DNA of 59,940 nucleotides from Thermodesulfobacteriota bacterium (GCA_050014415.1 JBEKDJ010000001.1:1-59940), one strand, 5' to 3'. Shown: positions 18,873 to 59,940, numbered from the stretch's first letter. Translations and numbers: made by a program. The notes: generated by a model not told the origin, from the letters alone.

Positions 18873-18883
18873 GATGGGCAAGA

Positions 18884-19006
18884 CATTGTCAAATGTCGAA
18901 GCTCAAATGAAATCAAAAGCTTAAATGACAAGAAGAGGAAAAGGGTGAAGTTTTGACATTGAGCCATCGTGGCTTTCATTTGACATTTGGATTTTGATAT
19001 TTGAAC
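18884..19006. repeat. AT-rich palindromic intergenic repeat, copy B
   Basis: TGTCAAATGTCGAAGCTCAAA (18887-18907), TTTTGACATT (18951-18960), ATTTGACATTTG (18978-18989, same 12-mer as 8293-8304), GATTTTGATATTTGAAC tail. Confidence 0.7.
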
Positions 19007-19106
19007 TTTTCTATTATGTTTGGATAGATCTTGCAGCAGGAGTGCTTCCAAACCCCCGGAGGCTTACTTCCCTCCTTATTATTCGTCGAACAGAGAGTGA
19101 AGAGAG

Positions 19107-35273: not shown

Positions 35274-35506
35274 GCCCTTCGTCACCATTCTCCCTCATGC
35301 GGAAAGCAACAGAACGCATTCTCCGATCGCGATGCCAAAGCTTGTTTGCCGCTTCTTGTTATGCACGGACATTTACTCTCAGGTCCATTATAGTCCGACT
35401 TTTTTTTATATTTATGATCTAAATCATTGCCGTAATTCAAGGATAACCTATAAAGTAGTGCAAGCTGAATTGCATTGCGAGTGTTTTCGGTTCGAGGTAG
35501 ACTCGG

Positions 35507-38672: not shown

Positions 38673-40136
38673 ATGGAGCCTAAGATCAGGAATAAACGGA
38701 TAGACGAAGACAGGTTCTTGAAAATGAGGGAGCCAGTCCTTGCTCTTTGGCCGACTGGCAAGGAAGTGGATCTCGATGAGGCGATTGAGTATCAGAAGAA
38801 CCTACCTGAGACCAAGAGCTTCTTAAAAGTGATTGAAAGACTCCATCGAGAAGAGAAAACAGTCGTCTTCCCGAGGGCAGGAACGCCGATTCTGGAGGAT
38901 CAGATAAGTCTCTGCAAAAACCTGGAGAGATCGGGAGTTCCGTTCATACCGGTAACAACGGATAGTTACACGCGCTTGCTCCAGTTTAAGAAGGTTGAGG
39001 AGGCGCTTGAGGAGAGCATCAGGACCGCCAAACCAATGCTCAATGGGTATCCTCTTATCAACCATGGGGTAAAAAAGACAAGGAAAGTGATTGAAAGCGT
39101 GAGTGAAGGTGCCTTTGACCCGAGGCTATCGCGTCTGTCCTATCCCCTGGCATCGGAAATTGCCTTTGCCTCAGGGATGACGGGAATTGCGGCCAGTCCG
39201 TTTATCTCATTCGGTGCTTACGAAAAGACTTGTACCCTTGAGGAGTCGATGGCCCAGTGTCAGTACGTTCAGAGGCTGGTCGGGTACTATGCGGATCGGG
39301 GCGTTATCATCACGACCGATAACCACGGATGGATTCCCACCGGTGTCTTCCCGTTGAGCGTCAATCTGGCGACCATGATCGTCGACGCCCTTACCTGTGC
39401 GGAGCAGGGTGTGAAGAGCATTGTCCCGTTGGTTCACAGCATGGGAAACCTTGCTCAGGATCTGGCTTGGATCAGGGTCACGCCGCGATTGATGAGGGAG
39501 TACCTTGACAGATTCGCCTATAAGGACGTGGTCATTCCAGGTAATTTTGCCGCTCAGACGCCGCTCTATCCGATGCCCCAGGGGCTGGGAGGGGCCTTTG
39601 CGTTTCTCAACTATACCGCCGTGCTGGCTGCGCTGGGGAAGGTGGAGTCAGTATTCCTCAGGACAATCGACGAGGGTGCGGGTGTCCCGACGGAAGAGGC
39701 TCATGCACTCAGTTACACATCAGCCAACTGGCTTTTCAATGTGATCAGGGGACAGAAGATCGAATTTGAGATGAAAGGGGTGGATGAGGAAGAGAGAATA
39801 GCAGAAATGGAAATCAGGGCTATTCTGGACAAACTTCTGGAGATAGGAGACGGTGATATCATTGTTGGGTCCACCCGGGGGGTTGAAGCTGGAATGATCG
39901 ATTCGTCCTTCAGCCCGAACAGGACGGTAAGGGACTTGGTCCTCGGAGTGAAAGACAGTAAAGGCGCAGTCCGTTATGCGGAGTTTGGAAATCTTCCCCT
40001 GCCCAAAGAGGCCAAGGAATTCCATCGCCAGAAGCTGGCAGAGAGGGCGAAAGAAGAGGGAAGAAAAATGGATTATGTTGTCACGGTTGAGGATTTCTGG
40101 TCCTTTAGCAAGGGACACCTGATCGGGAAACCGTAA
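38673..40136 (+). CDS. glmE: methylaspartate (glutamate) mutase E-subunit homologue
   Basis: 487 aa, collinear with clostridial GlmE as I remember it (WPTGKEVDL, PRAG, DSYTR, LNGYP, RYAEFGNLP, KGHLIGKP). The central substrate-pocket segment is divergent. Confidence 0.85.
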   Translation: MEPKIRNKRIDEDRFLKMREPVLALWPTGKEVDLDEAIEYQKNLPETKSFLKVIERLHREEKTVVFPRAGTPILEDQISLCKNLERSGVPFIPVTTDSYTRLLQFKKVEEALEESIRTAKPMLNGYPLINHGVKKTRKVIESVSEGAFDPRLSRLSYPLASEIAFASGMTGIAASPFISFGAYEKTCTLEESMAQCQYVQRLVGYYADRGVIITTDNHGWIPTGVFPLSVNLATMIVDALTCAEQGVKSIVPLVHSMGNLAQDLAWIRVTPRLMREYLDRFAYKDVVIPGNFAAQTPLYPMPQGLGGAFAFLNYTAVLAALGKVESVFLRTIDEGAGVPTEEAHALSYTSANWLFNVIRGQKIEFEMKGVDEEERIAEMEIRAILDKLLEIGDGDIIVGSTRGVEAGMIDSSFSPNRTVRDLVLGVKDSKGAVRYAEFGNLPLPKEAKEFHRQKLAERAKEEGRKMDYVVTVEDFWSFSKGHLIGKP

Positions 40137-40183
40137 TAGGTCCTATGTGCCCCATAGGATCTATTAGAAGGAGGATGGTGATC

Positions 40184-40606
40184 ATGAAAAGTCCGACAGT
40201 GATCACAGGCACAGTAGGTATGGATGCTCACGTCATTGGCACCAAAATACTATCCCGTGCTTTACGGGAGGCTGGTTTCAACGTCGTGGAGCTGGGAATC
40301 TTGACTCCTCCGGAGGAGTTTATTCAAGTCGCCATCGAAACAAATGCGGATGCGATCTTAATGAGCTCCCTTTACGGCATGGCCGAGCTAGATGTAAGGG
40401 GATTCAAGGAGAAGTGCGTCGAAGCGGGGCTCGAAAATGTGCTGCTTTACATCGGCGGTATCCTTGGCGTGGGCAGGCACGATTTCAAAGAGGATGAAAT
40501 CAAATTCAAAAGGCTGGGCTTCGACAGGGTCTATCCGCCCGAGGTGGATCTCAAGGGGCCCATTGCAGATCTCTGGACAGACTTGAAGGCCAAAGGGAAG
40601 GCTTGA
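40184..40606 (+). CDS. glmS: methylaspartate mutase S-subunit homologue (B12-binding)
   Basis: DxHxxG base-off/His-on motif (MDAHVIG), ILMSSLYG, LLYIGG. Start placed at ATG 40184, 9 nt after GGAGG; the track start is 40145. Confidence 0.9.
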   Translation: MKSPTVITGTVGMDAHVIGTKILSRALREAGFNVVELGILTPPEEFIQVAIETNADAILMSSLYGMAELDVRGFKEKCVEAGLENVLLYIGGILGVGRHDFKEDEIKFKRLGFDRVYPPEVDLKGPIADLWTDLKAKGKA

Positions 40607-42036: not shown

Positions 42037-42600
42037 ATGAGTGGCCACACTCGATTCGAGAAGCTGCTTGAGCCAGGTTATATCGGGTCGGTAAAGACCA
42101 GGAACCGGATCATAAAAACCGGTGCGGGAATGCTCATGTGGCACAAGGACGACGTCCACATGAGGGAAGAGGTAAAGGCTTTCTACGAAAGGATGGCCAG
42201 GGGCGGAGTGGGGCTGCTCATCGTAGAGTCGCCCACCATCGATTATCCTCTGGGCGCGCGCTGGAGGCAACGCTATCGCATCGACGATGACAAATACATT
42301 GAAGGTCTCGGAAAACTGGTTGAGGTCGTCCATAAACACGGCTGTCCCACTTTAATCAGTGAGGTCAAGGAATATGTAGAGATAACGGGCAAGGGGCTCA
42401 CCATTATCAATAAAGAAGGAGAAAGGCAGGTCATCGAGGCCGATACCGTCCTAACCGTCCTGCCGTTGACGCCCAATATGGGGCTGGTGAAGAGCCTGAA
42501 AGGAAAGGTTTCCGAGGTCTACGGCATTGGCGACTGCAAGGAGCCCCATTTGATAGCGGATGCCATCGGCATCAGCCTCCGGACCGCTCGCGCCGTCTAG
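42037..42600 (+). pseudogene. internally deleted OYE-type 2-enoate/2,4-dienoyl-CoA reductase remnant
   Basis: The first 105 aa or so are the start of an OYE TIM barrel (IGSVKTRNRIIKTGAG...ARGGVGLLIVE...VHKHGCPT). This joins directly to the last 80 aa or so of the FAD/NAD(P) domain (VYGIGDCKEPHLIADAIGISLRTA). About 450 aa are missing relative to the intact paralogue at 54333-56222. Confidence 0.6.
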
Positions 42601-47472: not shown

Positions 47473-48945
47473 ATGGTAGAAATTACTGAGAACACCGATC
47501 TCGTTGTGATCGGGTCTGGAGCAACAGGCACGGTGGCAGCCTTGACCGCCGCAGAAGGCGGCGCCAAGGTGATCCTTATTGAGAAGATGCGAAGCCTGGG
47601 GGGGGTCTCGAATTTCGCCGAAGGGATGTTTGCTGCGGAGAGTGATATGCAGCGTCCACAGTATGTCACCTACGATCGCGACGTCGCCTTCAAGACGATC
47701 ATGGAGTACAGCCACTGGCGCGCCAACCCGCGTTTAGTGAGGGCGTTTGTGAACGAGACTGCCGCCACAATCAGCTGGTTGCAAGAGCGCGGAGTGGAGT
47801 TCGAGGAACTCTCGACTAACATGCCCGACGGCCCTCTGGTCTGGCATGTCTTGAAGGGGCCGGATCGAGAGCGGGCATCCCTTATGATGAAGACGCTGGC
47901 TGCCAAGGCCAAAGAGAGAGGCGTTGCCTTCTGGCTGGGGACACCGGCAAAAGAACTGATCAAGGAGGGCGGCAAGATCACCGGCGTGACTGTCGAGAAG
48001 GATGGCAAAGAAGCCCAGGTGAGCGCCAAAGCTGTCCTTGTGGCTACGGGTGGCTACGCAAACAACAAGGAATGGATCAAGAAGTATACGGGATTTGACC
48101 TCGGTGTCAATCTGATTCCAATCGGTAACATTGATAAGATGGGTGAAGGCATCCGGATGGCCTGGCAGGTAGGCGCGGCTGAAGAGGGCATGGGCGTCCT
48201 CCAACTCCTCAGGGGAGGACCGGTATTGGGCCCGGGTCTCAGTTTCATTGGACCGATCGAAAGCGCGGCGTCCCAGCCCGGCCTTTGGGTGAATCAGGAT
48301 GGAGAGCGCTATTGCGACGAAAGCATTCAAGGCAACTTTTCCCTCGATGGCAACGCCATGGTCAGCCAGAGAGGGAGATATGTCTATGCGATTTTTGATG
48401 AGTCGAATGTTCGTCATTGGATGGAAAAGGGAACGGACCTGGGTACAGGCCGCATTTTCCCTCCCGGGAGCCGCCTCAATATCGGTCCGGCGCTGAAGGA
48501 TGCACTTAAAAACAACGCCCCTGACATATATGCCGCGAAAACCATAGAAGAGCTGGCCGTGAAAATCGGGATGGATCCCCTCATCCTAGAGGCTACCGTC
48601 GAGGAATACAACGGATTCTGTGAGAAGGGCCATGACGACCTCTTTGCCAAGGATCCAAAATACCTCCGACCCTTGAAGGAACCGAAGTTTTATGCCCTCA
48701 AGTGTAACGCAGTCTTCCTGGGAACACTCGGCGGCATCAAGATCAACCACAAAATGGAAGTAGTGGACAAGAAGGACAATCCGATCCCAGGACTCTACGC
48801 AGGGGGAATGGATGCGGGAGGAATCTATGGAGACTCTTATGACGTAATGACGTGTGGCGGGACCCTTGCCTTCGCCATCAATTCCGGCCGCATTGCGGGG
48901 AGAAATGCCCTGGAATATATCGGCAAACAAACTCGCCTGTGCTGA
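47473..48945 (+). CDS. soluble FAD_binding_2 flavoprotein (fumarate reductase / 3-ketosteroid dehydrogenase / TcuA-like), paralogue 1
   Basis: 490 aa. N-terminal dinucleotide fold DLVVIGSGATGTVAALTAAEGGAKVILIEK, ATGGYANN, C-terminal GLYAGG. No signal peptide. Confidence 0.85.
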   Translation: MVEITENTDLVVIGSGATGTVAALTAAEGGAKVILIEKMRSLGGVSNFAEGMFAAESDMQRPQYVTYDRDVAFKTIMEYSHWRANPRLVRAFVNETAATISWLQERGVEFEELSTNMPDGPLVWHVLKGPDRERASLMMKTLAAKAKERGVAFWLGTPAKELIKEGGKITGVTVEKDGKEAQVSAKAVLVATGGYANNKEWIKKYTGFDLGVNLIPIGNIDKMGEGIRMAWQVGAAEEGMGVLQLLRGGPVLGPGLSFIGPIESAASQPGLWVNQDGERYCDESIQGNFSLDGNAMVSQRGRYVYAIFDESNVRHWMEKGTDLGTGRIFPPGSRLNIGPALKDALKNNAPDIYAAKTIEELAVKIGMDPLILEATVEEYNGFCEKGHDDLFAKDPKYLRPLKEPKFYALKCNAVFLGTLGGIKINHKMEVVDKKDNPIPGLYAGGMDAGGIYGDSYDVMTCGGTLAFAINSGRIAGRNALEYIGKQTRLC

Positions 48946-49013
48946 CTTGGCAAGTCGCGGGAGGAGAGGTCTTTTCCCGCGTGGGTTATTGAACCAAAGA
49001 TTAAGGATCAACA

Positions 49014-50681
49014 ATGAATTATGAGCGGGTTTTTGCGAAGGCTAGATCTGACTGCAGCTATCTCAGTGATCGAGGTTACATCAAGATTTATGTTGGATCG
49101 TCGACAGACGATTCGGTTGCTGCCAGTGTATTGAGCAGTCTTCAAGCGGAGACTGCCAAACGCAGCATGAAAGTAAAAGTGATCGCAACGGGATCTTTCG
49201 GATACGATGATCTTGAGCCCCTTGTATTGATCGAGAAACCAGACAAACCTGCTGTCTTGTACAACAACATGACTCCGGAGAAAGCTTCTGAGCTGCTAAG
49301 CGACTATTTGCTGAACGACAACCCTAGACCGGACATGGCCCTTTGTAGCATCGGCAGTGACAGAATAGAGAATATCCCTCATAGCTCTGATCTGCCTTTA
49401 TTCAATCTGCAAGAACGAATCGCCTTACGCAACTGCGGCACCATCGACCCGGGAAATATCAACCACTCTATAGTGCGCGGGCAAGGCTATAGCGGACTTT
49501 CAAAGGCTTTGCAGATGGACCGACCGGACGTGGTAGAAGAAGTTAGAAAGTCCGGGTTGAGGGGGCGAGGGGGGGCTGGCTATGCAACGGCAGACAAATG
49601 GAAAGCCTGCCTCGATGCAGAAGGAAGCGACAAATATGTGATCTGCAATGCTGTCGATGCAGATCCGCGAGCACGTACGGCGCGACTGCTTCTGGACGGC
49701 GACCCTCACTCTGTTCTGGAAGGTCTGATGATCGGGGCATACGCTGTTGGCGCATCGCATGGCATCGTTTGTGTGAACGCAGGGTACGGCCGTGCAATAG
49801 AAAGGCTTAGGAGGGCATTAGCTCAGATGAGGGAATATGGACTTCTGGGCAATGACGTCCTGGGTTCAACCTTCAGTTCCGAAATAGAGATCGAGGAAGT
49901 GACAGCATCTCTTGTCTCAGGTGAGGAGACTGCCCTCCTCCGTTCCCTAGAAGAAAAACAGGTGCTGCCTTACTTGCGCCCACCCTATCCCGCTATGAGT
50001 GGATACTCAGGCAAGCCCACGTTGATCAGTAATGTAGAGACCCTGTCCGACGTGTCGGCCATTTTTCAAAATGGTTCGAAATGGTACTCCCGTTTTGGAA
50101 CGGAACAGAGCAAGGGAACCAAGGTGGTTACTCTATCAGGCAATGTAGCTCATCAATATACTGTTGAAATTCCCTTTGGAACAACCCTTCGGCGCATCGT
50201 CGAGAATATCGGGGGAGGAGTTCCGAACGGTAAAACGATCAAAGCGGTGCAGGTGGGCGGCCCGACGGGAGCCTATTTTGCTTCTGATTCTCTGGACCTT
50301 CAAGTCGATTATGAGATTATCAGGGAAGCGGGGTCTATGATCGGTTCGGGAACAGTCGAAGTCTTCGATAGCGATTCATGCGCTGTTGAAATGACCGAAG
50401 AGATCCTCTCTTATGTTCAGACTCAGTCATGCGGTAAATGCGTTTTCTGCCGTGAAGGGACCTATCAGATGTCTGATATCTTGAAAGACATTTCTGAATA
50501 TATGGGCAAGCCTCAGGACCTTGCGCTGCTGAGTGAGCTGGGTGAAGAGATGAAGATCGGCTGTATATGCGGTCTCGGCCAAACTGCTTCTAATCCTGTT
50601 CTGAGCAGCATCAGACTCTTCCGCCACGAGTATGATGCCCATATCAATGGGAAAAGATGTCCCACGAATAGCAAGCCTTAG
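49014..50681 (+). CDS. NuoF-like NAD(H)/FMN/[4Fe-4S] subunit with Cys-poor thioredoxin-like N-domain
   Basis: GLRGRGGAGYATADKW (FMN site), ICNAVDADP (NADH site variant), SLBB region, N3-type cluster CGKCVFCREG...C. The first 120 aa or so lack a four-Cys cluster. Confidence 0.85.
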   Translation: MNYERVFAKARSDCSYLSDRGYIKIYVGSSTDDSVAASVLSSLQAETAKRSMKVKVIATGSFGYDDLEPLVLIEKPDKPAVLYNNMTPEKASELLSDYLLNDNPRPDMALCSIGSDRIENIPHSSDLPLFNLQERIALRNCGTIDPGNINHSIVRGQGYSGLSKALQMDRPDVVEEVRKSGLRGRGGAGYATADKWKACLDAEGSDKYVICNAVDADPRARTARLLLDGDPHSVLEGLMIGAYAVGASHGIVCVNAGYGRAIERLRRALAQMREYGLLGNDVLGSTFSSEIEIEEVTASLVSGEETALLRSLEEKQVLPYLRPPYPAMSGYSGKPTLISNVETLSDVSAIFQNGSKWYSRFGTEQSKGTKVVTLSGNVAHQYTVEIPFGTTLRRIVENIGGGVPNGKTIKAVQVGGPTGAYFASDSLDLQVDYEIIREAGSMIGSGTVEVFDSDSCAVEMTEEILSYVQTQSCGKCVFCREGTYQMSDILKDISEYMGKPQDLALLSELGEEMKIGCICGLGQTASNPVLSSIRLFRHEYDAHINGKRCPTNSKP

Positions 50682-50686
50682 ACCTA

Positions 50687-52807
50687 TTGGGGAAGTGTGA
50701 TTTGGAAGCAATTAAACTTAACATCGACGGGCGTGCGATCGACACACAAAAAGGGAAAAGCATACTCGAGGCGTCCCTTGAAGGGGGCCTATACATTCCG
50801 CATCTTTGTCATCATCCTGATCTTTCGCCCATCGGCGCCTGCAGATTATGCGTCGTAGAAGTGGAAGGCATAAAAGGACTTCTAACTTCGTGTACGACGC
50901 CGGCTTCGGACGGAATGATCGTCAAGACCAAGACTGAGAATACAAACCACATGCGCCGGCTCGCCATGGAACTGATGCTTGCCGGGCATCCGCCCGATTG
51001 TGGAACATGCATCAAGTACCTCAATTGTGAGCTTCAGTCTATCAAGCAGTATCTCATGAGCGAGCATTTAAGTGTAAAGAGACGTTCAAAACTATTCCCG
51101 GTTAATACAGGCAACCCGCTCTTTGCACACGATCCCAACAAGTGCGTTCTTTGCGGCCGCTGTGTGAGGGCATGCCATGAACTTCGCGGTGTCGGTGTGC
51201 TCTTCTACAAAAAGAAGGGGAAAGAGACCTATATTGGCACAGCTTCAGATCTACCACTTGCTGATTCCGGCTGCAGATTCTGCGGCGCCTGTGCTGAAGT
51301 CTGCCCTAGCGGCGCCATCATGGATAAGGAAGAGTTTGCAAAAGGGAAAAGCCGAAGAGTTGCTCTGGTTCCCTGTAGATATGTCTGTCCGGCGGAAATA
51401 GATGTTCCGAGATATGTCCGCTTTATCAAGGAAAAGGATTATTCTGCAGCCACCGCCGTCATAAGGGAAAAGGTTCCTTTTCCCAAAGTGCTCGGTTATG
51501 TATGCGATCATCCCTGTGAAACGGCCTGTCGCAGGGGTGAGGTCAATCAGCCGATATCGATCAGGGATCTCAAGCGCTACGCTGCTGAGCATGATGAGCA
51601 AAGTTTTTGGAAGAAGCATGCAAACAAGAAACCTTCAACCGGCAAGGAGGTTGCCATTATCGGCTCTGGCCCAGCGGGTCTCACTGCGGCTTACTATCTT
51701 TCAAATCAAGGTCATGGAGTGACCGTATATGAGGCATTGCCTCTTGCAGGAGGAATGTTGCGTTTTGGAATTCCCGCATACCGTCTCCCCAGAAAGGTGC
51801 TCGATAGTGAGATCGAAGATATGGAAAATATAGGTGTGGAGATACTGACCAACACGCGTATCGAATCCATTGATAGGCTTTTTGAGCAGGGTCATGACGC
51901 CGTTCTTGTAGCGATCGGGGCCCATAAGGGCATGAAACTTTCCATTCCCGGAGCTGATAAAGAGGGTGTACTGATCAGCATTGATTTCTTGAGGGATGTC
52001 AATACAGGAAAGAAGGTCAGTCTTGGGAAGAAGGTTATGGTGTTGGGCGGCGGCAATGTCGCCTTTGACTGCGCCCGCATTGCGCGACGACTCGGTGCTG
52101 AACAGGTGTACATCGCCTGCCTTGAATGCAGAGCGGATATGCCAGCCGCCTGCGATGAAATCGATCAGGGAGAAGAGGAAGGTATTTCGATCCATCCTTC
52201 CAGGACGTTTACGCGGATTCTCAGTGAGAACGGGAAGATTACGGGAGTGGAATTCCTGGAGGTTGAGTCATTTAGCTTTGACGAAGATAAAAACGTTCAG
52301 ATTCAAGTTATTGAAAATTCCCATCATGTTCTTGAAGCGGATACCGTTATCTTCGCGGTGGGTCAGCGGCCAGAAATTCCAGCAGGCTTCGGCCTTGACA
52401 CTGCTGCAAATAGCCTCATAGAGCTAGACTCCTACACTTTTAGTACAAGCAGGGAAGGGGTGTTTGCCGCAGGCGACGCGGTGATCGGAACGGCATCTGT
52501 CATCAAGGCCATCGCTTCAGGCAGAAGGGGCGCGATCGCCGTGGACAAGTTTCTTGAAGGCACGGGAAATATCGATCAGAAGCTGGCTCCCGTTTCAGAG
52601 CCTGAAAAATGTCTCGGCCCGGGAGAAGACTTTTCATCAATGACCCGTTGCGAAGAATCCTGCATGCTGCCGGAAGAACGGCTACAGAGTTTCTGCAAGG
52701 TGGTGCAAGATATGGCTGAGAAAACTGCGGATTACGAATCGAAGCGTTGTCTGCAGTGCGACCTAAGACTGAAGATTGCGCCTGTGAAATTCTGGGGGAA
52801 TTACTAA
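50687..52807 (+). CDS. Fe-S / flavin fusion: NuoG-type [2Fe-2S]+His-ligated [4Fe-4S], 2x[4Fe-4S] ferredoxin, and GltD/NfnB-like NAD(P)H FAD oxidoreductase
   Basis: IDGRAI..CRLCVVEV, HPPDCGTCIKYLNCELQ, CVLCGRCVRAC / CRFCGACAEVCP, then the Fer4_20-type Cys region (CPAEIDVP, CDHPCETAC), VAIIGSGPAGLTAAYYL and VLGGGNVAFDCA. The start is TTG 50687 or TTG 50702. Confidence 0.85.
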   Translation: MGKCDLEAIKLNIDGRAIDTQKGKSILEASLEGGLYIPHLCHHPDLSPIGACRLCVVEVEGIKGLLTSCTTPASDGMIVKTKTENTNHMRRLAMELMLAGHPPDCGTCIKYLNCELQSIKQYLMSEHLSVKRRSKLFPVNTGNPLFAHDPNKCVLCGRCVRACHELRGVGVLFYKKKGKETYIGTASDLPLADSGCRFCGACAEVCPSGAIMDKEEFAKGKSRRVALVPCRYVCPAEIDVPRYVRFIKEKDYSAATAVIREKVPFPKVLGYVCDHPCETACRRGEVNQPISIRDLKRYAAEHDEQSFWKKHANKKPSTGKEVAIIGSGPAGLTAAYYLSNQGHGVTVYEALPLAGGMLRFGIPAYRLPRKVLDSEIEDMENIGVEILTNTRIESIDRLFEQGHDAVLVAIGAHKGMKLSIPGADKEGVLISIDFLRDVNTGKKVSLGKKVMVLGGGNVAFDCARIARRLGAEQVYIACLECRADMPAACDEIDQGEEEGISIHPSRTFTRILSENGKITGVEFLEVESFSFDEDKNVQIQVIENSHHVLEADTVIFAVGQRPEIPAGFGLDTAANSLIELDSYTFSTSREGVFAAGDAVIGTASVIKAIASGRRGAIAVDKFLEGTGNIDQKLAPVSEPEKCLGPGEDFSSMTRCEESCMLPEERLQSFCKVVQDMAEKTADYESKRCLQCDLRLKIAPVKFWGNY

Positions 52808-52850
52808 TCTGGATCCAACGGCATTTCAACCAGAGCAAGGGAGGGGAACC

Positions 52851-54299
52851 ATGGACAGAACAACTGCAGAAACCGACGTTATCGTGATCGGCTCCGGTGT
52901 TTCAGGACTGGCTGCGGCACTAACCTCGGCAGAAGGCGGCGCAAAGGTCATCGTTTTTGAAAAGCAGCGCTCTCTGGGAGGAACTTCCAACTTCTTCGAT
53001 GGCATGTTTGCAGTAGAAAGCGAGATGCAGCGGCAGAGATACATCAAATATAGCCGGGATGAAGCATTTAGGAAGATCATGGAATACAGCCACTGGCGGG
53101 CAAATGCTCGTCTGGTGAGAGCCTTTGTCAATGAATCGGGAGGTACCATTGCCTGGCTGCAGGAGAAAGGGGTTGAGTTTAGCGACGCGACGATCAATAT
53201 GCCCGACGCCCCCCGGACCTATCACGTGGTTAAAGGACAGGGAGCGGCTGTGGTGAAAGCACTTTCTACCAGAGCAAAAGAAAAGGGAGTTGATCTCCGG
53301 CTGGCAATACCTGTCCAAAGAATCCTCAAAGAAGGCGGCAGGGTCGCCGGCGTCATTGCGGAGGAGAATGGTGAGGACATGCAGGTGGCTGGGAAGGTGG
53401 TCATCATTGCCAGCGGCGGCTATGCCAACAATAAGGAATGGATAAAGAAATACGCGGGGTTTGATCTGGATGTCAATGTGATTCCCGTTGGCAACGTCGA
53501 TAAGATGGGAGACGGCATTCGCATGGCCTGGGAGGTCGGTGCGGCTGAGGAAGGTCTTGGGGTATTAGAGTTGTTCCGCGTTGGTCCTGTGGGACCGGAA
53601 TTTGCCATGAAGGGGCAGATCGAGTTTATCGCCGCCCAACCTGACCTCTGGGTCAACCCACGGGGGGAACGGTTCTGCGATGAAGGGATTGCATTCTACG
53701 ATACTTCAGTAGGCAATGCGAATGCCAGACAGAAAGAAGGTTTCACCTATAGTCTATTTGATGAGTCGATCAAGGCGTACGTGATTGAGAAAGGAATTGA
53801 CAGGGGTGTGGGGATGGATAATCCTCCTGGCACCCGGCCCGTGGACTTCGACAAAGAACTGAACGCCGCCGTTGAAAAGGGGAGCACAGAGGTATTTGTG
53901 GCAGACTCCATAGAGGAATTGGCCGGGAAAATGGGGGTGAACCCAACTGTATTGAAGACGACGGTTCTTGAATACAACGGATTTTGCGAGAAAGGCCATG
54001 ATGATTTCTTCGCCAAGGACCCGAGATACCTCCGGCCGCTCAAGGGCCCGAAATTCTACGCCGTGAAGGCCCGAACTGTCTTTTTGGGAACCCTCGGAGG
54101 GATCAAGATCAACCACAAGATGGAAGTGGTGGATAAGAAGGGCAAAGTCATTCCCGGCCTCTACGCTGTCGGGTTTGATGCAGGTGGTATGTGGGGAGAC
54201 AGCTATAGCATCAGGAATTCCTCCGGCGCTTCGGCAGGGTTTGCGACTAATTCCGGCCGCATTGCCGGAAAGAATGCCCTGAAATACATCGGGAAATAG
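52851..54299 (+). CDS. soluble FAD_binding_2 flavoprotein, paralogue 2
   Basis: 482 aa, collinear with 47473-48945. By eye, roughly half to two-thirds of positions are identical (for example GGYANNKEWIKKY, EYNGFCEKGHDD, LGTLGGIKINHKMEVVDKK). Confidence 0.85.
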   Translation: MDRTTAETDVIVIGSGVSGLAAALTSAEGGAKVIVFEKQRSLGGTSNFFDGMFAVESEMQRQRYIKYSRDEAFRKIMEYSHWRANARLVRAFVNESGGTIAWLQEKGVEFSDATINMPDAPRTYHVVKGQGAAVVKALSTRAKEKGVDLRLAIPVQRILKEGGRVAGVIAEENGEDMQVAGKVVIIASGGYANNKEWIKKYAGFDLDVNVIPVGNVDKMGDGIRMAWEVGAAEEGLGVLELFRVGPVGPEFAMKGQIEFIAAQPDLWVNPRGERFCDEGIAFYDTSVGNANARQKEGFTYSLFDESIKAYVIEKGIDRGVGMDNPPGTRPVDFDKELNAAVEKGSTEVFVADSIEELAGKMGVNPTVLKTTVLEYNGFCEKGHDDFFAKDPRYLRPLKGPKFYAVKARTVFLGTLGGIKINHKMEVVDKKGKVIPGLYAVGFDAGGMWGDSYSIRNSSGASAGFATNSGRIAGKNALKYIGK

Positions 54300-54332
54300 T
54301 GGATTGGAGTATTCGGGAAGGGGGGTTCTGAG

Positions 54333-56222
54333 ATGGCGGAATACAAACATATCTTTACACCCATAAAAATTGGCAGGCTGACGGTAAAGAACCGGATCGA
54401 GGCTGCTCCTGCAGGGCCCATGCTGGCTGGCATCGATGGTGATGTCACAAGAGAATTAGTTGAATGGGAAAGGGCGTTAGCCAAAGGGGGAGCAGGGATT
54501 GTCACGATAGGTGATACTCCTGTCGTAAGTGAAATTCCTATGAGGGTGGGGCATCTCATTGATCTGGGAACGGATAAATCGGTCAACGTGTTGAACAGGC
54601 TTGCGGAACCCATACAGAGGTACGGCGCCAAGGCATCCATTGAATTGACCTATCATGACTACTTTGTTCACCACTCTCCTACAGAGATGACGCTGGAAGA
54701 AATCAAGAGGCTCATCGATGCTCATGCCAACGCGGCTTACCGCTGCTTGATTGCGGGCATGGATATGATTATGGTTCACACGGCCCATGGACATCTGGTG
54801 AGTCAGTTCCTTTCACCGAAGAATAACTATCGTACCGACGCCTATGGTGGTTCCTTCAAGAACAGGGCGAGGTTTGCCATCGAAATACTTGAAGCGATCA
54901 GAAATAAGGTGGGAGACAGATTGGCGATTGAGTATCGTATCAGCGGTGATGAATTGGCGCCCGATGGATTAACGTTAGAAGAGCAGCTTGAGTTCTCCAG
55001 AATGATTCAGGATAAGATTGACCTGATACACGTATCGGCGGGGAAGCTTTATGAAGAGAAAACTATTCCGAGGATCTTCCAACCCATATATATCCCCCGT
55101 GGTGTCAACGTTTATCTTGCGGAGCGGTTCAAGAAAGAACTGAAAATACCTGTTACCACAGTCGGGTCCCTTAACCTTGAAATGGCTGAACAGATCCTTG
55201 CCGAAAACAAAGCGGATATTGTTGCCATGGCCCGTAGTCTTATTGCCGATCCCGACGCTGTCAATAAGGCAAAGAAAAGGAATGAGGATACGATCAGGCC
55301 GTGTGTCCGCTGCAATACGTGTATTGATCTGTCACACAGGACCTTATTGCCCGTTCATTGTGCCGTCAACCCCCTTGCTGGGAGAGAAGCGGAATTTTTG
55401 AGCCTTCCATTACCTGCCAAAAAGAGAAAGGTCGTTGTCGTGGGCGGAGGACCGGCAGGTATGGAGGCTGCAAGAAGAGCTGCAGATCGAGGCCATGAGG
55501 TGGTTCTCTTTGAAAAAGACGCACAGTTAGGTGGATCTTTAGTCATGGCTTCTGCGATGCCCTTTAAGACCGATATGAAAGCATATCTGGATTGGGCAAT
55601 ACGTACAACAATGAATACCCTTCGTTTGACGGTCAAATTATCTACGGAAGCGACGCCTGAGAGAATAAGGGTGGAGAACCCCGATGCCCTGATTGTCGCC
55701 GTGGGTTCTACTCCTATTATTCCGAAAATGCCAGGGATTAATAGGAAAAATGTTGTTTGGGCGGGAGATGTAGACTTGGGGAGAGTAAAGGTTGGCGAAA
55801 GGGTGCTTGTGGCAGGTGCAGGAATGACAGGTTCAGAAACGGCATTATACCTGACACAGCAGGGAAAGAAGGTCACCTTGATTGATATGCTATCTTTGGA
55901 AGAGATCGATGCAGAATATCCTTTTGTCAATATTATATCTTTACGGGGAATGATGAAGGATCTCAAGGTTGACATTAAGACAGAAGTGAAACTGGAAGCG
56001 ATCACGGACACAGGCGCTGTTGTTACAGACAAAAACTGGAACAAGGTCGAAATACCCTGCGATACCGTCGTTCTTGCTGTGGGTGTGAAACCTCGTACCG
56101 AAGTTGTCCGCATGTTTGAGGCTTTGGCCCCTGAGGTCTATATGGCTGGTGACTGCAATAAGGAAAGGGGCAATTTGTATAGCGCCACGCTGCAAGGATT
56201 CTTCGCAGCGATGGAGATCTGA
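54333..56222 (+). CDS. OYE-family FMN/[4Fe-4S]/FAD 2-enoate reductase / 2,4-dienoyl-CoA reductase-like oxidoreductase
   Basis: 629 aa. OYE barrel (IGRLTVKNRIEAAP, HTAHGHLVSQFLSP), Cys cluster CVRCNTC...C, then VVVVGGGPAGMEAA and VAGAGMTGSE dinucleotide folds, and AGDC near the C-terminus. Confidence 0.85.
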   Translation: MAEYKHIFTPIKIGRLTVKNRIEAAPAGPMLAGIDGDVTRELVEWERALAKGGAGIVTIGDTPVVSEIPMRVGHLIDLGTDKSVNVLNRLAEPIQRYGAKASIELTYHDYFVHHSPTEMTLEEIKRLIDAHANAAYRCLIAGMDMIMVHTAHGHLVSQFLSPKNNYRTDAYGGSFKNRARFAIEILEAIRNKVGDRLAIEYRISGDELAPDGLTLEEQLEFSRMIQDKIDLIHVSAGKLYEEKTIPRIFQPIYIPRGVNVYLAERFKKELKIPVTTVGSLNLEMAEQILAENKADIVAMARSLIADPDAVNKAKKRNEDTIRPCVRCNTCIDLSHRTLLPVHCAVNPLAGREAEFLSLPLPAKKRKVVVVGGGPAGMEAARRAADRGHEVVLFEKDAQLGGSLVMASAMPFKTDMKAYLDWAIRTTMNTLRLTVKLSTEATPERIRVENPDALIVAVGSTPIIPKMPGINRKNVVWAGDVDLGRVKVGERVLVAGAGMTGSETALYLTQQGKKVTLIDMLSLEEIDAEYPFVNIISLRGMMKDLKVDIKTEVKLEAITDTGAVVTDKNWNKVEIPCDTVVLAVGVKPRTEVVRMFEALAPEVYMAGDCNKERGNLYSATLQGFFAAMEI

Positions 56223-56370
56223 ATAAGGCTTTTCTTTTCAAAAAAATGTCTGGAATAAAAGAAGCTTAGCAGGATTCCGCGAGGCACCCTTGAAGCACTC
56301 GTGCCAGATAACCTGGGGAAGTACCGCACCTCATCACTGGTGGCATGCACGGTGACGGTACAGTATTCAT

Positions 56371-57786
56371 ATGTTGAGAGATAAACGTGAATCCTTGTCC
56401 GAAAAAGGGAAAGGAGAGACTTTTCCCTGGATAGGTACTGCCCTGACGAAAGACTGGACAAAGGGCTCCATCCTTGGCAACCTCCTATCGTTGTCCTGGC
56501 CCATGATGATGATGGAGACTCTCTACGTGGTGAGCCAGATCGTTGAGATGATCTGGATAGGGAGGCTGGGACCATCTGCTATTGCCGGGGTGGGCGTTGC
56601 CAATATCGTTCTTTTTTCAGTGATGTCTATGGATTTCGGATTCATCATCGGGATGAGAGCCATGGTCGCCCGTCACGTGGGAGCTGGTAATATCGCAGGC
56701 GCAAATTACATTGCAGGGCAGGCCTTTGTTCTGAGTGTTATCTGGGGTGTATTGATCACGGGAGCAGGTGTCCTTCTGGCCGAACCGATCATCAGGATGT
56801 TCGGTGTGGAGTCTCAGGTTATAACGGAAGGAACGGCATATCTGCGCGTTATGTTTGCTGGCTGGGTGACCATGGAAGTCCTGGTCATGGGCCTCTACGT
56901 TATCCAGTCTTCAGGAGATACGATGACCCCACTGAAAATAGAATTTTCTATCAGAGTGGTCCACGTGACTCTTTGCCCCTTCCTTGTCAAAGGCTTATGG
57001 ATATTCCCTCAACTCGGTGTCAGAGGAGCAGCTCTCAGTAATGTCATTTCTCAGATCCTGGGAGCAGGTCTGGGGTTATGGTTACTCTTTAGAGGGCATA
57101 CCAGGCTGAGGCTTACTCTGAGCCATTTCCGTTTTAGTCCCAATATTATCTGGCATATCTTGAAGATTGGCGTTCCTGCCTTGGTCATGAACCTGCAGAG
57201 ATCCTTGGGTGATATCGCATTGACATTGTTTATTGTCCCCTTTGGTACTCTGGCTGTGGCTGCTCATAGTCTTGCATCGAGGGTAGACATGTTCCTGTCC
57301 CTGCCGGGGATGGGATTGGGTTCAGGGGCTGGTGTGCTGGTTGGTCAAAACCTTGGGGCGCATCAGCCTGAGAGGGCAGAGAGAGGCGCCTGGCTCGCAG
57401 TGGGATTTGTGGAAGCCTTTATGGTTGCCTGTTCGATAGTGATTCTTTTATGGGCGGAAAATATAATAGGCATCTTCACGACCGAGGCCAGTCTTATACG
57501 CCTGGGTAGCATCTTCCTCAGAATAGCCACCGGAAGCTACCTGATATTGGCTCTCGTCTTTGTGTTGCAGAGTTGTATCGCAGGCGCCGGCGATACCATC
57601 CCCAATATGATCATTAATATAGGCATGATTTGGGTGGTGCAATTGCCCCTTGCATTTCTTTTACCTTGTATCACCGACCTCGGCATCTTCGGAGTGCGGT
57701 GGGCGATCGTGGCGAGCACATTCGCAGGGACAATCGTCTACGTGACCTACTTCAAATGGGGAAGATGGAAGACCAAGAGGGTATAG
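56371..57786 (+). CDS. MATE family efflux transporter
   Basis: 471 aa, 12 predicted TM helices, typical MATE N-terminus (ILGNLLSLSWPMMMMETLYVVSQIVEMIWIGRLG). Confidence 0.85.
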   Translation: MLRDKRESLSEKGKGETFPWIGTALTKDWTKGSILGNLLSLSWPMMMMETLYVVSQIVEMIWIGRLGPSAIAGVGVANIVLFSVMSMDFGFIIGMRAMVARHVGAGNIAGANYIAGQAFVLSVIWGVLITGAGVLLAEPIIRMFGVESQVITEGTAYLRVMFAGWVTMEVLVMGLYVIQSSGDTMTPLKIEFSIRVVHVTLCPFLVKGLWIFPQLGVRGAALSNVISQILGAGLGLWLLFRGHTRLRLTLSHFRFSPNIIWHILKIGVPALVMNLQRSLGDIALTLFIVPFGTLAVAAHSLASRVDMFLSLPGMGLGSGAGVLVGQNLGAHQPERAERGAWLAVGFVEAFMVACSIVILLWAENIIGIFTTEASLIRLGSIFLRIATGSYLILALVFVLQSCIAGAGDTIPNMIINIGMIWVVQLPLAFLLPCITDLGIFGVRWAIVASTFAGTIVYVTYFKWGRWKTKRV

Positions 57787-57983
57787 GGTGTTCGATACAG
57801 AAATCTCATCAAGAGGGTGAGGAAGGGACATGACTATATCAAGACTCAGGAGATATATTGTGACAGACGTAAAACGCAACCCAGAGTTTTTTTCTTATCG
57901 AACCGATCCTGCTCAAGACTTATCCAGCCCTCGCAGTTTGCCAACCCCAGTACTGCACAGTCGGCGGAAATAGTGCAGAACGC

Positions 57984-58745
57984 TTGGTCAAATCGATGGA
58001 GAGCAATATGACTTCTCCTCAACAGGATTTGGTCATTTTGGAAAAATTCAATTTCGACGTGAAACCTGTGACTGCGAGCTTCCTGATCAGGCCACCTGAA
58101 AGAGTCCCGAGACTGGAGGCGAAGATGACCTTCTGTCAGATGATAAGAAGGGCTCAGGAGGGCGAACCGTTCTACGCGGATTCAGAGAATCATGCCTGCG
58201 AAGTGGGGCCCTTCATACTGGGGGGTCAGGATATTCCACCGCCTTTTTTTCGGGGAGAATATGGGGTGGCGCATAAACACTTCAGGGAACCGCGGGCTAT
58301 GAGAAGGATTTATCGAATAATCCCGAAGCTGGAAAAGAATGTCGTGAGCTGCGTTGCCTTTTCCACAGTGGATCAACTGTCAATTGAACCGGATGTGATC
58401 ATCTTTGTGGCTGATTTTGATCAGACGCAGATTCTGTTAAGGGCAATGAGTTATACCACCGGACAGCCTTACACCAGCAAGTTCACAGGCGTGATGGGCT
58501 GCGCATGGCTCTTCATCTATCCGTACCTGACGGGAAAACTGAATTATGTGCCTGCGAACTTCAGTGCAGGAATGAAGTTGCTCAAAGTCTTTCGTGACGG
58601 TACGATCGTAACATCTATTCCTTATCAATTGTTGCCTACGGTCTTAAGAAACCTGCAGGAAATGCCGTGGATTCTGCCTCTTCATCAAGCGGATGGAGAA
58701 GAGTTCCGGGAGCGACTGAGAAGAGACCTGGGGATTGATGGATGA
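57984..58745 (+). CDS. DUF169 family protein (uncharacterised)
   Basis: About 250 aa. The FCQMIRRAQEGEPFYADSENHACEVGPFILG pattern resembles DUF169/COG2043 as I recall it. Start ambiguous: TTG 57984, ATG 57996 or ATG 58008. Confidence 0.55.
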   Translation: MVKSMESNMTSPQQDLVILEKFNFDVKPVTASFLIRPPERVPRLEAKMTFCQMIRRAQEGEPFYADSENHACEVGPFILGGQDIPPPFFRGEYGVAHKHFREPRAMRRIYRIIPKLEKNVVSCVAFSTVDQLSIEPDVIIFVADFDQTQILLRAMSYTTGQPYTSKFTGVMGCAWLFIYPYLTGKLNYVPANFSAGMKLLKVFRDGTIVTSIPYQLLPTVLRNLQEMPWILPLHQADGEEFRERLRRDLGIDG

Positions 58746-58784
58746 TAGGGGACAAAGCAAATGGATAGAGACTTGGGAGGTCAT

Positions 58785-59940
58785 ATGGAAGCCGACGTCG
58801 TGGTGATTGGTTCGGGTGCTGCCGGGATGGCTGCGGGATTAACCGCTGCAGAAGGAGGCGCGAAGGTCATTCTTTTTGAGAAGATGCGCCACCACGGTGG
58901 GACTTCTAATTTTGCTCAAGGATTGTTTGCCGTTGAAAGTGACATGCAGCGGCAGAAGTACATCGGTATTACATGTGATGAAGCGTTCAAGACAGCCATG
59001 GACTACAGCCACTGGCGTGCTAACCCCCTTCTGGTGAGAGCCGTCATCGATAAATCTGCCGACACGATTAAATGGCTACAGAAACAAGGGGTTGAATTCG
59101 TCGAGCCTGTGACCATGTTCTATAACGCCCCTCGAACCTGGCATATACTAAAAGGTAAACCCAGGGCCGGAGGTAGAGGCTCGGCTATGATTAAGGTTCT
59201 TGCGGCAAGGGCAAAGGAGAGGGGAGCCGATCTAAGGCTGGCCATGCCAATAAGGAAGATCATCAAAGAGGGTGGCAAGATCATCGGCGTCATTGCTGAA
59301 AAAAGCGGCAAAACCATAAGGGTGAACGGGAAGGCCGTCATTATCGCCACTGGGGGGTATGCCAACAACAAAGAATGGGTGAAAAAATACTCTGGATTTG
59401 ATCTGGACATTAATCTTTTCCCCCTAGGGAATATCAACAAGATGGGAGATGGTATTCGTTTGGCCTGGGAGGTTGGAGCCGCTGAAGAAGGGATGGGTAT
59501 TCTGCAGCTTTGGAGGAGCATATTGATTGGGCAGGGAGTCAGGGAACTGGGAAACCTTAATGCGGCGGCCCTCCAGCCCCACCTCTGGGTGAATCAGCGT
59601 GGAGAACGTTTCTGTGACGAGACGATCGCAAACATCGATCCCTTTGAAGGTAATGCGTGTGCCAGACAAAAGAATGGCTATAGCTATACGATATTTGACG
59701 AAGCCATCAGGCGGCACATGATGGAAAAAGGGATTGACAAGAATATGGGAACCGAAAATCCTCCTGGCACCCCACTTGTCAATTTTGATGCTGAGCTCAA
59801 AGGTGCGCTCGAAAAGAGAAATCCCCACATATTCTCGGCGGATTCTGTGGATGAGCTGGCCGGTAAGATAGGGGCAAACCCGACCGTTCTGAAGGCCACC
59901 GTTAAAGAATATAACCGATTCTGTGAAAAGGGCCATGATG
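58785..59940 (+). CDS. soluble FAD_binding_2 flavoprotein, paralogue 3 (3'-partial, runs off the window)
   Basis: Absent from the ORF track because it has no stop in the window. ATG 58785 follows GGGAGG. My own translation reads MEADVVVIGSGAAGMAAGLTAAEGGAKVILFEK...GGYANNKEWVKKY...EYNRFCEKGHD, collinear with the other two paralogues. Confidence 0.85.
   Translation, partial: MEADVVVIGSGAAGMAAGLTAAEGGAKVILFEKMRHHGGTSNFAQGLFAVESDMQRQKYIGITCDEAFKTAMDYSHWRANPLLVRAVIDKSADTIKWLQKQGVEFVEPVTMFYNAPRTWHILKGKPRAGGRGSAMIKVLAARAKERGADLRLAMPIRKIIKEGGKIIGVIAEKSGKTIRVNGKAVIIATGGYANNKEWVKKYSGFDLDINLFPLGNINKMGDGIRLAWEVGAAEEGMGILQLWRSILIGQGVRELGNLNAAALQPHLWVNQRGERFCDETIANIDPFEGNACARQKNGYSYTIFDEAIRRHMMEKGIDKNMGTENPPGTPLVNFDAELKGALEKRNPHIFSADSVDELAGKIGANPTVLKATVKEYNRFCEKGHD

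Follow-up and report, generated by a model that had tools for sequence, protein, structure and literature searches.

We analysed a 59,940-nt stretch of DNA from a Thermodesulfobacteriota bacterium (GCA_050014415.1 JBEKDJ010000001.1:1-59940), hereafter the window, and identified between position 47473 and the window end three flavoproteins of the FAD_binding_2 family (Flavo1, Flavo2 and Flavo3), a NuoF-like subunit, a protein that joins iron-sulphur (Fe-S) domains to a GltD-like domain (the GltD fusion), an old yellow enzyme (OYE)-type Fe-S flavoenzyme, a MATE family transporter and a DUF169 protein (Table 1). The coordinates and domain calls given for these eight genes by an earlier sequence-only reading of the same DNA were reproduced by our open reading frame (ORF) map and Pfam scans. 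From 47473 to 56222 all genes lie on the plus strand, with intergenic gaps of 5-68 nt. We propose, at somewhat better than even odds (roughly 55%), that the region encodes a soluble, multi-subunit, NAD(P)H-dependent C=C reductase, in which electrons would pass from NADPH to the GltD FAD, through an Fe-S chain and on to the FAD of a flavoprotein.

The three flavoproteins are 59-61% identical to each other, and both sequence blocks from which their paralogy had been deduced, GGYANNKEW[IV]KKY and LGTLGGIKINHKMEVVDKK, were found. They match PF00890 with 185.6, 181.4 and 149.4 bits (cutoff 20.4), and the fold is backed by Foldseek. Flavo3 runs off the window end; in a near-identical strain, contig L159 (L-numbers denote the relatives' loci or contigs used for comparison) carries it at 18084-19553 as a full-length protein of 489 aa with the same C-terminal motifs. 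Each of the three ORFs starts at the first possible start codon past the upstream stop and carries GxGxxG at residues 9-14, and thus an N-terminal signal or Tat peptide is impossible. In addition, Pfam detected no FMN_bind and no haem or cytochrome domain in any of them. The absence of a leader and of FMN_bind was therefore upheld, and with it the view that these are cytoplasmic proteins and not periplasmic enzymes of the UrdA/ArdA type. A periplasmic respiratory reductase of the UrdA, ArdA or Fcc3 type is excluded, there being no space for a leader and no FMN_bind or multihaem input domain.

Among curated NCBIfam families, the top match of all three flavoproteins is the vinylphenol reductase VprA equivalog NF053717, which aligns end to end (positions 5-480 of 481) with scores of 385.6 bits for Flavo1, 381.0 for Flavo2 and 290.2 for the partial Flavo3 against a cutoff of 600. 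Scores also fall below the cutoff for the flavocytochrome c model (206 bits, cutoff 285), for the TcuA model PRK08274/NF006130 (184 and 195 bits, cutoff 369, again with end-to-end alignment) and for the KstD models (179 and 152 bits; the cutoff of PRK12844 is 789). Placement by hidden Markov models, a check that the sequence-only reading had called for, thus leaves the flavoproteins outside every characterised orthologous group, and they form a distinct clade related to VprA. VprA of Lactiplantibacillus plantarum matches them in size (about 480-490 aa), in consisting of a single FAD_binding_2 domain and in being cytoplasmic and without a leader, and it reduces a C=C bond; unlike them, it is encoded alone with a LysR regulator and not beside a GltD/NuoF module, and the model score of 381-386 against 600 sets the two apart. 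The clade is large, with 3610 scored matches among 8000 candidates, almost all of them metagenomic, and in JGI annotations its members usually bear the automatic name 'fumarate reductase flavoprotein subunit'.

Taken at face value, that name would make these proteins ordinary soluble fumarate (or urocanate, mesaconate) reductases. The nearest PDB entries by sequence are indeed Shewanella Fcc3 and the urocanate reductase UrdA (E ~1e-41), and a glutamate-mutase-like GlmE/S/L set upstream in the window could generate mesaconate. An AlphaFold model of Flavo1 (pLDDT 79, pTM 0.81) compared with PDB folds by Foldseek again recovered Fcc3/UrdA (E ~1e-35, TM 0.62-0.70) and nothing closer than the sequence search had given; its top TM-scores, 0.70-0.75, were to 3-ketosteroid dehydrogenases. 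The identity to Fcc3/UrdA is, however, 26-29%, the flavocytochrome c model is not reached, and the active site differs. When aligned to 1d4d, the flavoproteins have Gly, Gly and Tyr in place of the Fcc3 residues His365, His504 and Arg545, which bind the carboxylate, while the proton donor Arg402 is kept as R279 in the motif GERYCDE. The replaced positions are invariant among 18 clade members, where they form the motifs GDSY and LGTLGG. With three of the four fumarate-site residues replaced and all family scores below threshold, we therefore reject a fumarate or urocanate reductase identity, and regard ordinary reductases of this group as a very remote prospect. Fcc3 and UrdA (1d4d, 1qjd, 6t85) share with our flavoproteins the fold, the catalytic arginine and the family FAD motifs; they differ in being periplasmic, in having a haem or FMN_bind input domain and in their substrate-binding His, His and Arg.

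The two genes between Flavo1 and Flavo2 encode the putative electron-input module. The best PDB matches of the NuoF-like protein are BfuB-type subunits (7t2r_B, NfnB 9n5u_B, StnB 8oh5_B and HydB). The alignment stops before the C-terminal domain of these matches, the protein ending after NADH_4Fe-4S (N3/B1) at 555 aa as against 597-638 aa for true BfuB proteins. There is no C-terminal ferredoxin (B3/B4) domain and no CxxCxxCxxxC motif in the tail, and the thioredoxin-like N-domain has lost all its cysteines. The FMN motifs GRGGAGY and GEETAL and the N3 cysteines (SCGKCVFCREG, CGLGQTA) are kept; the NADH loop, canonically an acidic [DE][GS][DE]PG (ADEGDPGAFMDR), reads AVDADPRARTAR. A census of 82 NuoF-like partners found the N3 cysteines in 79, the FMN loop in 35 and a canonical NADH loop in six, and the conserved function is therefore electron relay and not NADH oxidation. 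Since the loop of the window's own protein is non-canonical, the safer assignment of the donor is NADPH, with entry at the GltD domain.

The GltD fusion carries, by motif, a NuoG-N-type [2Fe-2S] and three [4Fe-4S] clusters plus two GltD [4Fe-4S] clusters, together with the FAD motif GSGPAG, a C-terminal RCLQCD motif and the NADPH site GxGxxA (GGGNVA), which in the Stn paper is taken to mark NADP(H) binding. Homologues are numerous (7687 at E<=1e-50); across phyla the protein is 54-78% identical, and the cluster cysteines, FAD motif, GGGNVA and RCLQCD are invariant. Its best PDB matches are 9bov_A, StnC (8oh5_C) and NfnA (9n5u_A). The module accordingly resembles StnABC and NfnABC (8oh5, 9n5u, 9bov) in having a NuoF/BfuB-type FMN and [4Fe-4S] subunit and in joining NuoG-type clusters to an NfnL/GltD FAD-NADPH domain. 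It differs from them in lacking NuoE/BfuC, B3/B4, the N-domain cysteines and a canonical NADH loop, in the permuted domain order of the fusion (NuoG-N clusters first, GltD/NfnL second, no molybdopterin-like domain) and in the added FAD_binding_2 subunit.

The operon contains no NuoE/BfuC-type gene, its gaps being only 5-68 nt and Pfam giving no 2Fe-2S_thioredx match, and no ferredoxin gene. The Bfu features retained are the FMN site and B1 (N3) [4Fe-4S] cluster of the BfuB type, and a NuoG-N cluster chain of the BfuA type together with the NfnL/GltD domain. The C-terminal B3/B4 domain of BfuB has been described as essential for bifurcation (PMC11829005); without C1, B3 and B4 the window's module fails the defining features of Bfu, though it is clearly of Bfu descent, and canonical Bfu/Stn membership is excluded. 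The sequence-only reading had envisaged one NAD(P)H/ferredoxin-coupled module. The link between the flavoproteins and the NuoF/GltD genes is conserved and underlined by gene fusions, as set out below, but coupling to ferredoxin is not supported, the NuoE-like subunit and the C-terminal dicluster of NuoF being missing.

A contrast is provided by relatives of the fusion that lack a flavoprotein. In L116 and L136 the fusion is accompanied by a NuoE-like gene and a NuoF of 636-638 aa with a canonical NADH loop and a C-terminal dicluster, an operon that reads as a complete, compact Nfn-Bfu enzyme without the molybdopterin-like domain. The gene order in both is NuoE-like, long canonical NuoF, then NuoG-N/GltD fusion, and in L136 a DUF169 gene lies directly 3' of the fusion, echoing the DUF169 gene ahead of Flavo3 in the window. 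Given these complete parts where no flavoprotein is present, the ferredoxin- and NAD-specific parts have been lost precisely where the flavoprotein was gained. Separately, the Dehalococcoidales contig L014 carries, besides a flavoprotein module, a 636-aa NuoF with a canonical NADH loop and two ferredoxin motifs, followed by a 987-aa NuoG-like protein, that is, a bona fide Bfu-type enzyme next door.

Such descent could mean that the triad is itself a new flavin-based bifurcating or confurcating enzyme on a remodelled Nfn/Bfu scaffold, in which exergonic C=C reduction would drive the reduction of ferredoxin, flavodoxin or a second pyridine nucleotide, as in Bcd-Etf or caffeyl-CoA reductase, with NAD+ as the possible acceptor at the retained NuoF FMN. 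We consider this quite improbable. The module does derive from bifurcating enzymes, judging by its best PDB matches (NfnA/NfnB, StnB/StnC, HydB), and it offers two flavin sites (GltD FAD and NuoF FMN), to which the flavoprotein adds one more; on textbook thermodynamics, NAD(P)H and an enoate also lie far enough apart in energy to pay for ferredoxin reduction. The GltD/NfnL-type FAD is reported to be the bifurcating site of NfnSL (PMC12018979). However, the BfuC/NuoE [2Fe-2S] subunit and the B3/B4 dicluster domain, both reported to be essential, are absent, the operon has no ferredoxin gene and the NADH loop is degenerate. Moreover, the FMN domain itself has been lost in gut relatives, and at some loci the NuoF-like gene is missing altogether. 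Were such a mechanism nonetheless at work, energy-limited anaerobes of sediments and gut could conserve energy while disposing of, or exploiting, unsaturated organics.

Evidence for a functional link between flavoprotein and module comes from conserved synteny. A scan of the flavoprotein clade, with one genome per species, covered 264 relatives, mostly metagenome-assembled genomes (MAGs) of Dehalococcoidia, Desulfobacteraceae, Syntrophorhabdaceae, Acidobacteriota and Actinomycetota. One gene order, with NuoF first, then the GltD fusion and then the flavoprotein, is repeated in at least five phyla, in MAGs of Dehalococcoidia, Desulfobacterota, Syntrophorhabdia, Acidobacteriota and Actinomycetota. 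Of the 61 loci with enough upstream sequence, 31 have a GltD fusion that ends 17-362 nt before the flavoprotein starts, and in 44 the two are no more than 10 kb apart; among the 29 loci at which the fusion is adjacent and the upstream sequence spans at least 4.2 kb, 21 have a NuoF-like gene directly 5' of the fusion. In the reciprocal direction, metagenomic fusions at least 57% identical to that of the window are accompanied by a flavoprotein at 27 of 29 assessable loci (26 within 500 nt), and more distant fusions of 48-56% identity, including those on human-gut contigs, have one within 6 kb in 31 of 41 cases. This tight adjacency persists across phyla while the sequences diverge to 36-60% identity. 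The association of these flavoproteins with NuoF/GltD genes, which the sequence-only reading had put forward as open to test in related genomes, is therefore strongly conserved. Taken together, the 60% paralogy and the recurrent synteny are far beyond chance.

In addition to adjacency, we found natural gene fusions. Gut-type loci have the order fusion, 400-aa NuoF remnant (NADH_4Fe-4S plus Fer4 dicluster), flavoprotein, and no FMN domain is detectable in that remnant. On five independent metagenome contigs, some of them from human gut, the gene that directly follows the GltD fusion encodes a single polypeptide of 918-982 aa in which the NuoF remnant (NADH_4Fe-4S) and the Fer4 dicluster are joined to FAD_binding_2 (Table 1). 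These single-chain proteins are a classic indication, of the Rosetta-stone type, that the NuoF remnant and the flavoprotein act together. At loci such as L015 and L078 the fusion stands directly 5' of the flavoprotein with no NuoF, so the fusion-flavoprotein pair is the tightest core of the system.

These observations bear on the suggestion that the NuoF/GltD pair is an independent Nfn/Stn-like transhydrogenase, merely co-transcribed with stand-alone flavoproteins that draw directly on NAD(P)H or free reduced flavin. In its favour, the gene of VprA, the nearest relative to have been characterised, stands by itself beside its regulator, many paralogues of the 'satellite' type (the term we use for Flavo1 and Flavo3) have no module nearby, and complete Bfu-type versions of the fusion exist without flavoproteins. 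Yet nature has fused the NuoF remnant to the flavoprotein, adjacency has been kept tight across phyla in spite of the divergence, and the NADH loop, NuoE and the ferredoxin-reducing domain have disappeared exactly in the flavoprotein-linked lineages, a loss that would cripple a transhydrogenase. We therefore find mere co-transcription hard to credit.

Based on these results, our preferred reading of the locus as a soluble NAD(P)H-dependent C=C reductase can be set out as follows. A hydride from NADPH would be taken up by the FAD of the GltD-like domain in the fusion, and single electrons would then pass first along the [4Fe-4S] pair of GltD and next along the NuoG-type clusters, reaching the N3/B1 [4Fe-4S] cluster of the NuoF-like subunit, whose FMN, where retained, is probably also on the path. 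The same wire from FAD through Fe-S clusters to FMN is present in the NfnABC structure. The next acceptor would be the non-covalent FAD of the FAD_binding_2 subunit, which is predicted to reduce a C=C bond with Arg279, the equivalent of Fcc3 Arg402, as proton donor. Flavo2 would be the resident catalytic subunit, and Flavo1 and Flavo3 are diverged paralogues that most likely associate with this module as well, with substrate specificities of their own. Neither fumarate nor urocanate is a substrate; the adjacent catabolic island probably supplies the substrates, in the form of unsaturated acids or CoA esters that arise as its intermediates.

The reductive direction follows from energetics. Couples of the C=C/CH-CH type lie near 0 mV and NAD(P)H lies near -320 mV; for an enzyme linked to NAD(P)H, the direction is therefore reduction. 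An oxidative role for the flavoproteins, as KstD- or TcuA-like desaturases that feed the neighbouring ECH and PrpD-like enzymes while the module exports electrons to NAD(P)+ or another acceptor, must also be considered. Among the island's genes are those for CoA-transferases, a hydratase, a PrpD-like protein and short-chain dehydrogenases/reductases (SDRs), with none for an acyl-CoA dehydrogenase, and a desaturase would complete a sequence resembling beta-oxidation. The end-to-end matches to the TcuA (184-195 bits) and KstD (~179 bits) models, the TM-scores to 3-ketosteroid dehydrogenases noted above and the recurrence of PrpD-like genes beside satellite flavoproteins are all in line with this. 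Nevertheless, oxidation of a saturated C-C bond (~0 mV) by NAD(P)+ (-320 mV) would be strongly endergonic, the module has no obvious exits other than its pyridine-nucleotide sites, the genes include no quinone-linked or membrane partner, and the scores are far under every KstD and TcuA cutoff. We judge an oxidative role unlikely.

Several observations weigh against the multi-subunit reductase that we favour. About a third of the fusion-adjacent loci, L015 and L078 among them, have no NuoF-like gene there, and therefore this subunit may be dispensable or encoded elsewhere. The NuoF-like protein of the window keeps its FMN motifs, and NADH binding or another second site is thus possible. Adjacency and gene fusion indicate functional coupling and not stoichiometry, so that a stable complex is one step beyond what they suggest. 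Many satellites of the Flavo1 and Flavo3 types have no module within 10 kb, and by analogy these may work alone, as VprA appears to do in Lactobacillus. The substrate class is deduced from neighbouring enzymes, and these point to no single compound. Finally, a reductive step sits oddly in a mostly catabolic island.

The three paralogues appear to differ in their relation to the module. In a neighbour-joining tree of 140 flavoproteins, read together with the loci, members of the Flavo2 clade are almost always found directly downstream of the GltD fusion, while Flavo1 and Flavo3 each belong to another clade, made up of proteins encoded near a module or unlinked to one. In the Desulfobacteraceae MAG locus L003 a Flavo1 orthologue of 76% identity is found where Flavo1 stands in the window, and Flavo3 orthologues of 75% identity are present in L048, L061 and L068; with orthologues at 75-82% identity in other MAGs, the duplication is old. 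L003 repeats the order seen in the window, with a Flavo1 orthologue, another flavoprotein, NuoF, the fusion and a Flavo2 orthologue, and a Syntrophorhabdaceae contig (L004/L052) holds four flavoproteins, two OYE enzymes and one module in ~25 kb. Several catalytic subunits per module are thus a recurring design. The proposal that all three flavoproteins share one module holds well for Flavo2, since its clade is the only one that habitually adjoins the module; for Flavo1 and Flavo3 we infer such sharing.

Comparison with known systems allows the locus to be classified as a combination of familiar parts with one new element. The VprA-like flavoproteins, the Stn/NfnABC scaffold and the OYE Fe-S flavoenzyme are known types; the new element is the type of input module for soluble FAD_binding_2 reductases. 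It had been suggested that the arrangement was not a described system. This stands for the triad, for which we found no paper, and is to be qualified for the module, which is recognisable as a permuted, stripped relative of StnABC/NfnABC. In the full-text literature searched we found no description of an FAD_binding_2 enzyme fed by a GltD/NuoG/NuoF module. The survey of the Bfu family selected BfuB proteins with a ferredoxin domain and gives no third reaction of the FAD_binding_2 type, and a survey of gut flavin reductases that focuses on secreted enzymes does not mention a GltD/NuoF-flavoprotein module.

Two other enzyme groups show related solutions. The cytoplasmic NADH:fumarate, acrylate and cinnamate reductases of Klebsiella and Vibrio (FRD, ARD and Crd), from the work of Bogachev and Bertsova, reportedly combine an OYE-like NADH dehydrogenase domain with FMN_bind and covalent FMN and have no Fe-S clusters. 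They resemble the present proteins in that a soluble FAD_binding_2 unit is fed from pyridine nucleotide through a dedicated flavin module and not from the quinone pool; in the window, by contrast, there is no FMN_bind and the input is the GltD/NuoG/NuoF Fe-S wire. That line of work includes bioRxiv 10.1101/2023.03.04.531086, which is on the reductases of Klebsiella and Vibrio. TcuA is likewise a stand-alone FAD_binding_2 protein of similar length with a separate Fe-S partner. That partner, TcuB, is a membrane protein, and electrons pass to the respiratory chain in the oxidative direction. The partner in the window is soluble and NAD(P)H-linked, and the TcuA model scores of 184-195 bits against a cutoff of 369 also separate the two.

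Three further candidates were set aside. The steroid reductases OsrA and OsrB are both OYE-type Fe-S flavoenzymes, and thus relevant only to the gene at 54333-56222 and not as relatives of the flavoproteins. The isoprene reductase cluster of Acetobacterium has a GltD-family protein and Hyp chaperones and no FAD_binding_2 partner. The equol gene cluster contains an OYE enzyme, an SDR, THDR, which we take to be an FAD_binding_2 protein, and an unspecified 'glutamate synthase' gene; our comparison yielded no evidence that it is the same module.

Uncultured anaerobes and gut bacteria in their thousands carry the pairing of fusion and flavoprotein, which suggests that this kind of soluble reductase is widespread. 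Many flavoproteins of Dehalococcoidia, Desulfobacterota, Syntrophorhabdia and some gut bacteria are of the 'fumarate reductase-like' sort and are routinely mis-annotated. Together, the locus, the synteny and the fusions suggest a dedicated soluble electron-input module for one large flavoprotein clade, in which a bifurcating transhydrogenase scaffold would have been cut down and re-used to feed a different catalytic subunit. A vague annotation is thereby replaced by a testable three-protein enzyme and by a rule for finding its members in metagenomes. If the substrates are unsaturated compounds derived from plants, humic matter or hydrocarbons, such enzymes may matter for carbon turnover in anoxic sediments and for the reduction of xenobiotic and dietary compounds in the gut.

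Table 1. Location of the genes described in the window (first 11 rows) and on the contigs of relatives (remaining rows)
Feature	Position	Strand	Description
Flavo1	47473-48945	+	490 aa; FAD_binding_2 (PF00890, 185.6 bits); 'satellite' paralogue
NuoF/BfuB-like subunit	49014-50681	+	555 aa; Complex1_51K + NADH_4Fe-4S (Pfam)
Fe-S/GltD fusion	50702-52807	+	701 aa from ATG 50702 (alternative TTG 50687, 706 aa); Fer2_4 + NADH-G_4Fe-4S_3 + Fer4 dicluster + Fer4_20 + Pyr_redox_2 (Pfam)
Flavo2	52851-54299	+	482 aa; FAD_binding_2; start 43 nt past the fusion gene
OYE-type Fe-S flavoenzyme	54333-56222	+	629 aa; Oxidored_FMN + Pyr_redox_2 (Pfam)
MATE family transporter	56371-57786	+	471 aa; MatE (Pfam); TIGR00797, 252 bits (cutoff 147)
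DUF169 protein	57984-58745	+	253 aa; PF02596; 39 nt upstream of Flavo3
Flavo3	58785-59940 (window end)	+	385 of 489 aa seen; FAD_binding_2; 'satellite' paralogue
Glutamate-mutase-like B12 set	33921-35288, 38673-40136, 40145-40606	-, +, +	together encoding GlmL, GlmS and GlmE-like proteins
CoA-transferase-like protein	35507-37279	+	590 aa
OYE/Pyr_redox_2 enoate reductase remnant	42037-42600	+	187-aa ORF
NuoF remnant-flavoprotein fusion	L123 8010-10766		single polypeptide
NuoF remnant-flavoprotein fusion	L131 4300-7086		single polypeptide
NuoF remnant-flavoprotein fusion	L142 4435-7212		single polypeptide
NuoF remnant-flavoprotein fusion	L152 2416-5193		single polypeptide
NuoF remnant-flavoprotein fusion	L154 4051-6999		single polypeptide
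Complete Nfn-Bfu-like operon	L136 3588-8873		NuoE-like, long NuoF, NuoG-N/GltD fusion
Complete Nfn-Bfu-like operon	L116 3614-8121		NuoE-like, long NuoF, NuoG-N/GltD fusion
Bfu-type enzyme (Dehalococcoidales)	L014 15447-20365		636-aa NuoF, 987-aa NuoG-like protein
Genes 3' of Flavo3	L159 19550-22106		two SDR genes and a hydantoinase A / acetone-carboxylase-type gene

The remaining genes of the operon region are less closely tied to the module. The sequence-only reading had listed all these genes as one arrangement; the synteny scan bears this out for the flavoproteins with NuoF and GltD and not for the OYE, MATE and DUF169 genes. The OYE-type enzyme shows the motifs of its class, namely an Oxidored_FMN barrel, CxxCxxC...C (CVRCNTC...C) and an FAD/NAD(P)H domain. 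No equivalog cutoff was reached, the NCBIfam model BaiCD scoring 430 bits against 825, and the PDB matches are 2-naphthoyl-CoA reductase (NCR; 6qkg, 275 bits) and DCR (1ps9, 229 bits). OYE homologues occur at only some flavoprotein loci, and the enzyme is predicted to be self-sufficient; its gene belongs to the operon but is not a conserved part of the unit. A MATE gene was found at only 2 of 77 loci, and DUF169 is likewise not conserved near the flavoproteins; apart from the one DUF169 gene beside the L136 fusion, synteny does not support either as a conserved partner.

Further upstream we found a 187-aa ORF left over from an OYE/Pyr_redox_2 enoate reductase that has lost ~450 aa internally; the ORF aligns to residues 4-99 and 557-610 of the 629-aa OYE enzyme. 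In a sister strain it is split further, into pieces of 139 aa and 40 aa, and the gene is probably a pseudogene.

The first 26 kb of the window carry housekeeping genes, including RelA/SpoT, ABC transporter genes, IMPDH, GuaA, DnaE and MutL. At ~26000, where DnaE/MutL give way to the catabolic island, the GC content rises from ~0.47-0.48 to 0.52-0.54, and this step, together with counterparts of the island genes in other phyla at 52-80% identity, suggests that the island was acquired by horizontal transfer. The island includes an amidohydrolase, five family-III and one family-I CoA-transferases, an MFS_3 transporter, several SDRs, a crotonase and a PrpD-like protein; we found no acyl-CoA dehydrogenase in it. 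Homologues of its CoA-transferase, GlmE, ECH, PrpD-like and SDR genes (52-71% identity) surround satellite flavoproteins in Dehalococcoidia (L018, L034 and L050). This enzyme set points to branched or alicyclic acids activated by CoA, with no single substrate assignable.

Two of the island's components are unusual. The glutamate-mutase-like B12 set is complete and scores 577 bits for GlmL (cutoff 475), 190 for GlmS (cutoff 110) and 367 for the GlmE-like protein (just under the cutoff of 390). A B12 mutase set amid six CoA-transferases is unusual for a free-acid mutase, and it may represent a variant mutase pathway. In addition, the 590-aa protein has a family-I CoA-transferase domain in its N-terminal half only and no NCBIfam match, and may be a fused alpha/beta CoA-transferase of an uncharacterised type.

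Counts of promoter and terminator motifs in the window were at chance level, and Rfam and tRNA scans of the window gave no matches. The nearest genomes point to an uncultured host of Desulfobacterota-like type. DNA identical to the window is present in JGI sample 3300038425, and a relative with 97-99% protein identity is represented by ENA ERZ25039515. In L159, Flavo3 is followed by two SDR genes, the first of which overlaps the Flavo3 stop codon by 4 nt, and by a hydantoinase A / acetone-carboxylase-type gene, so that the island extends beyond the window end.

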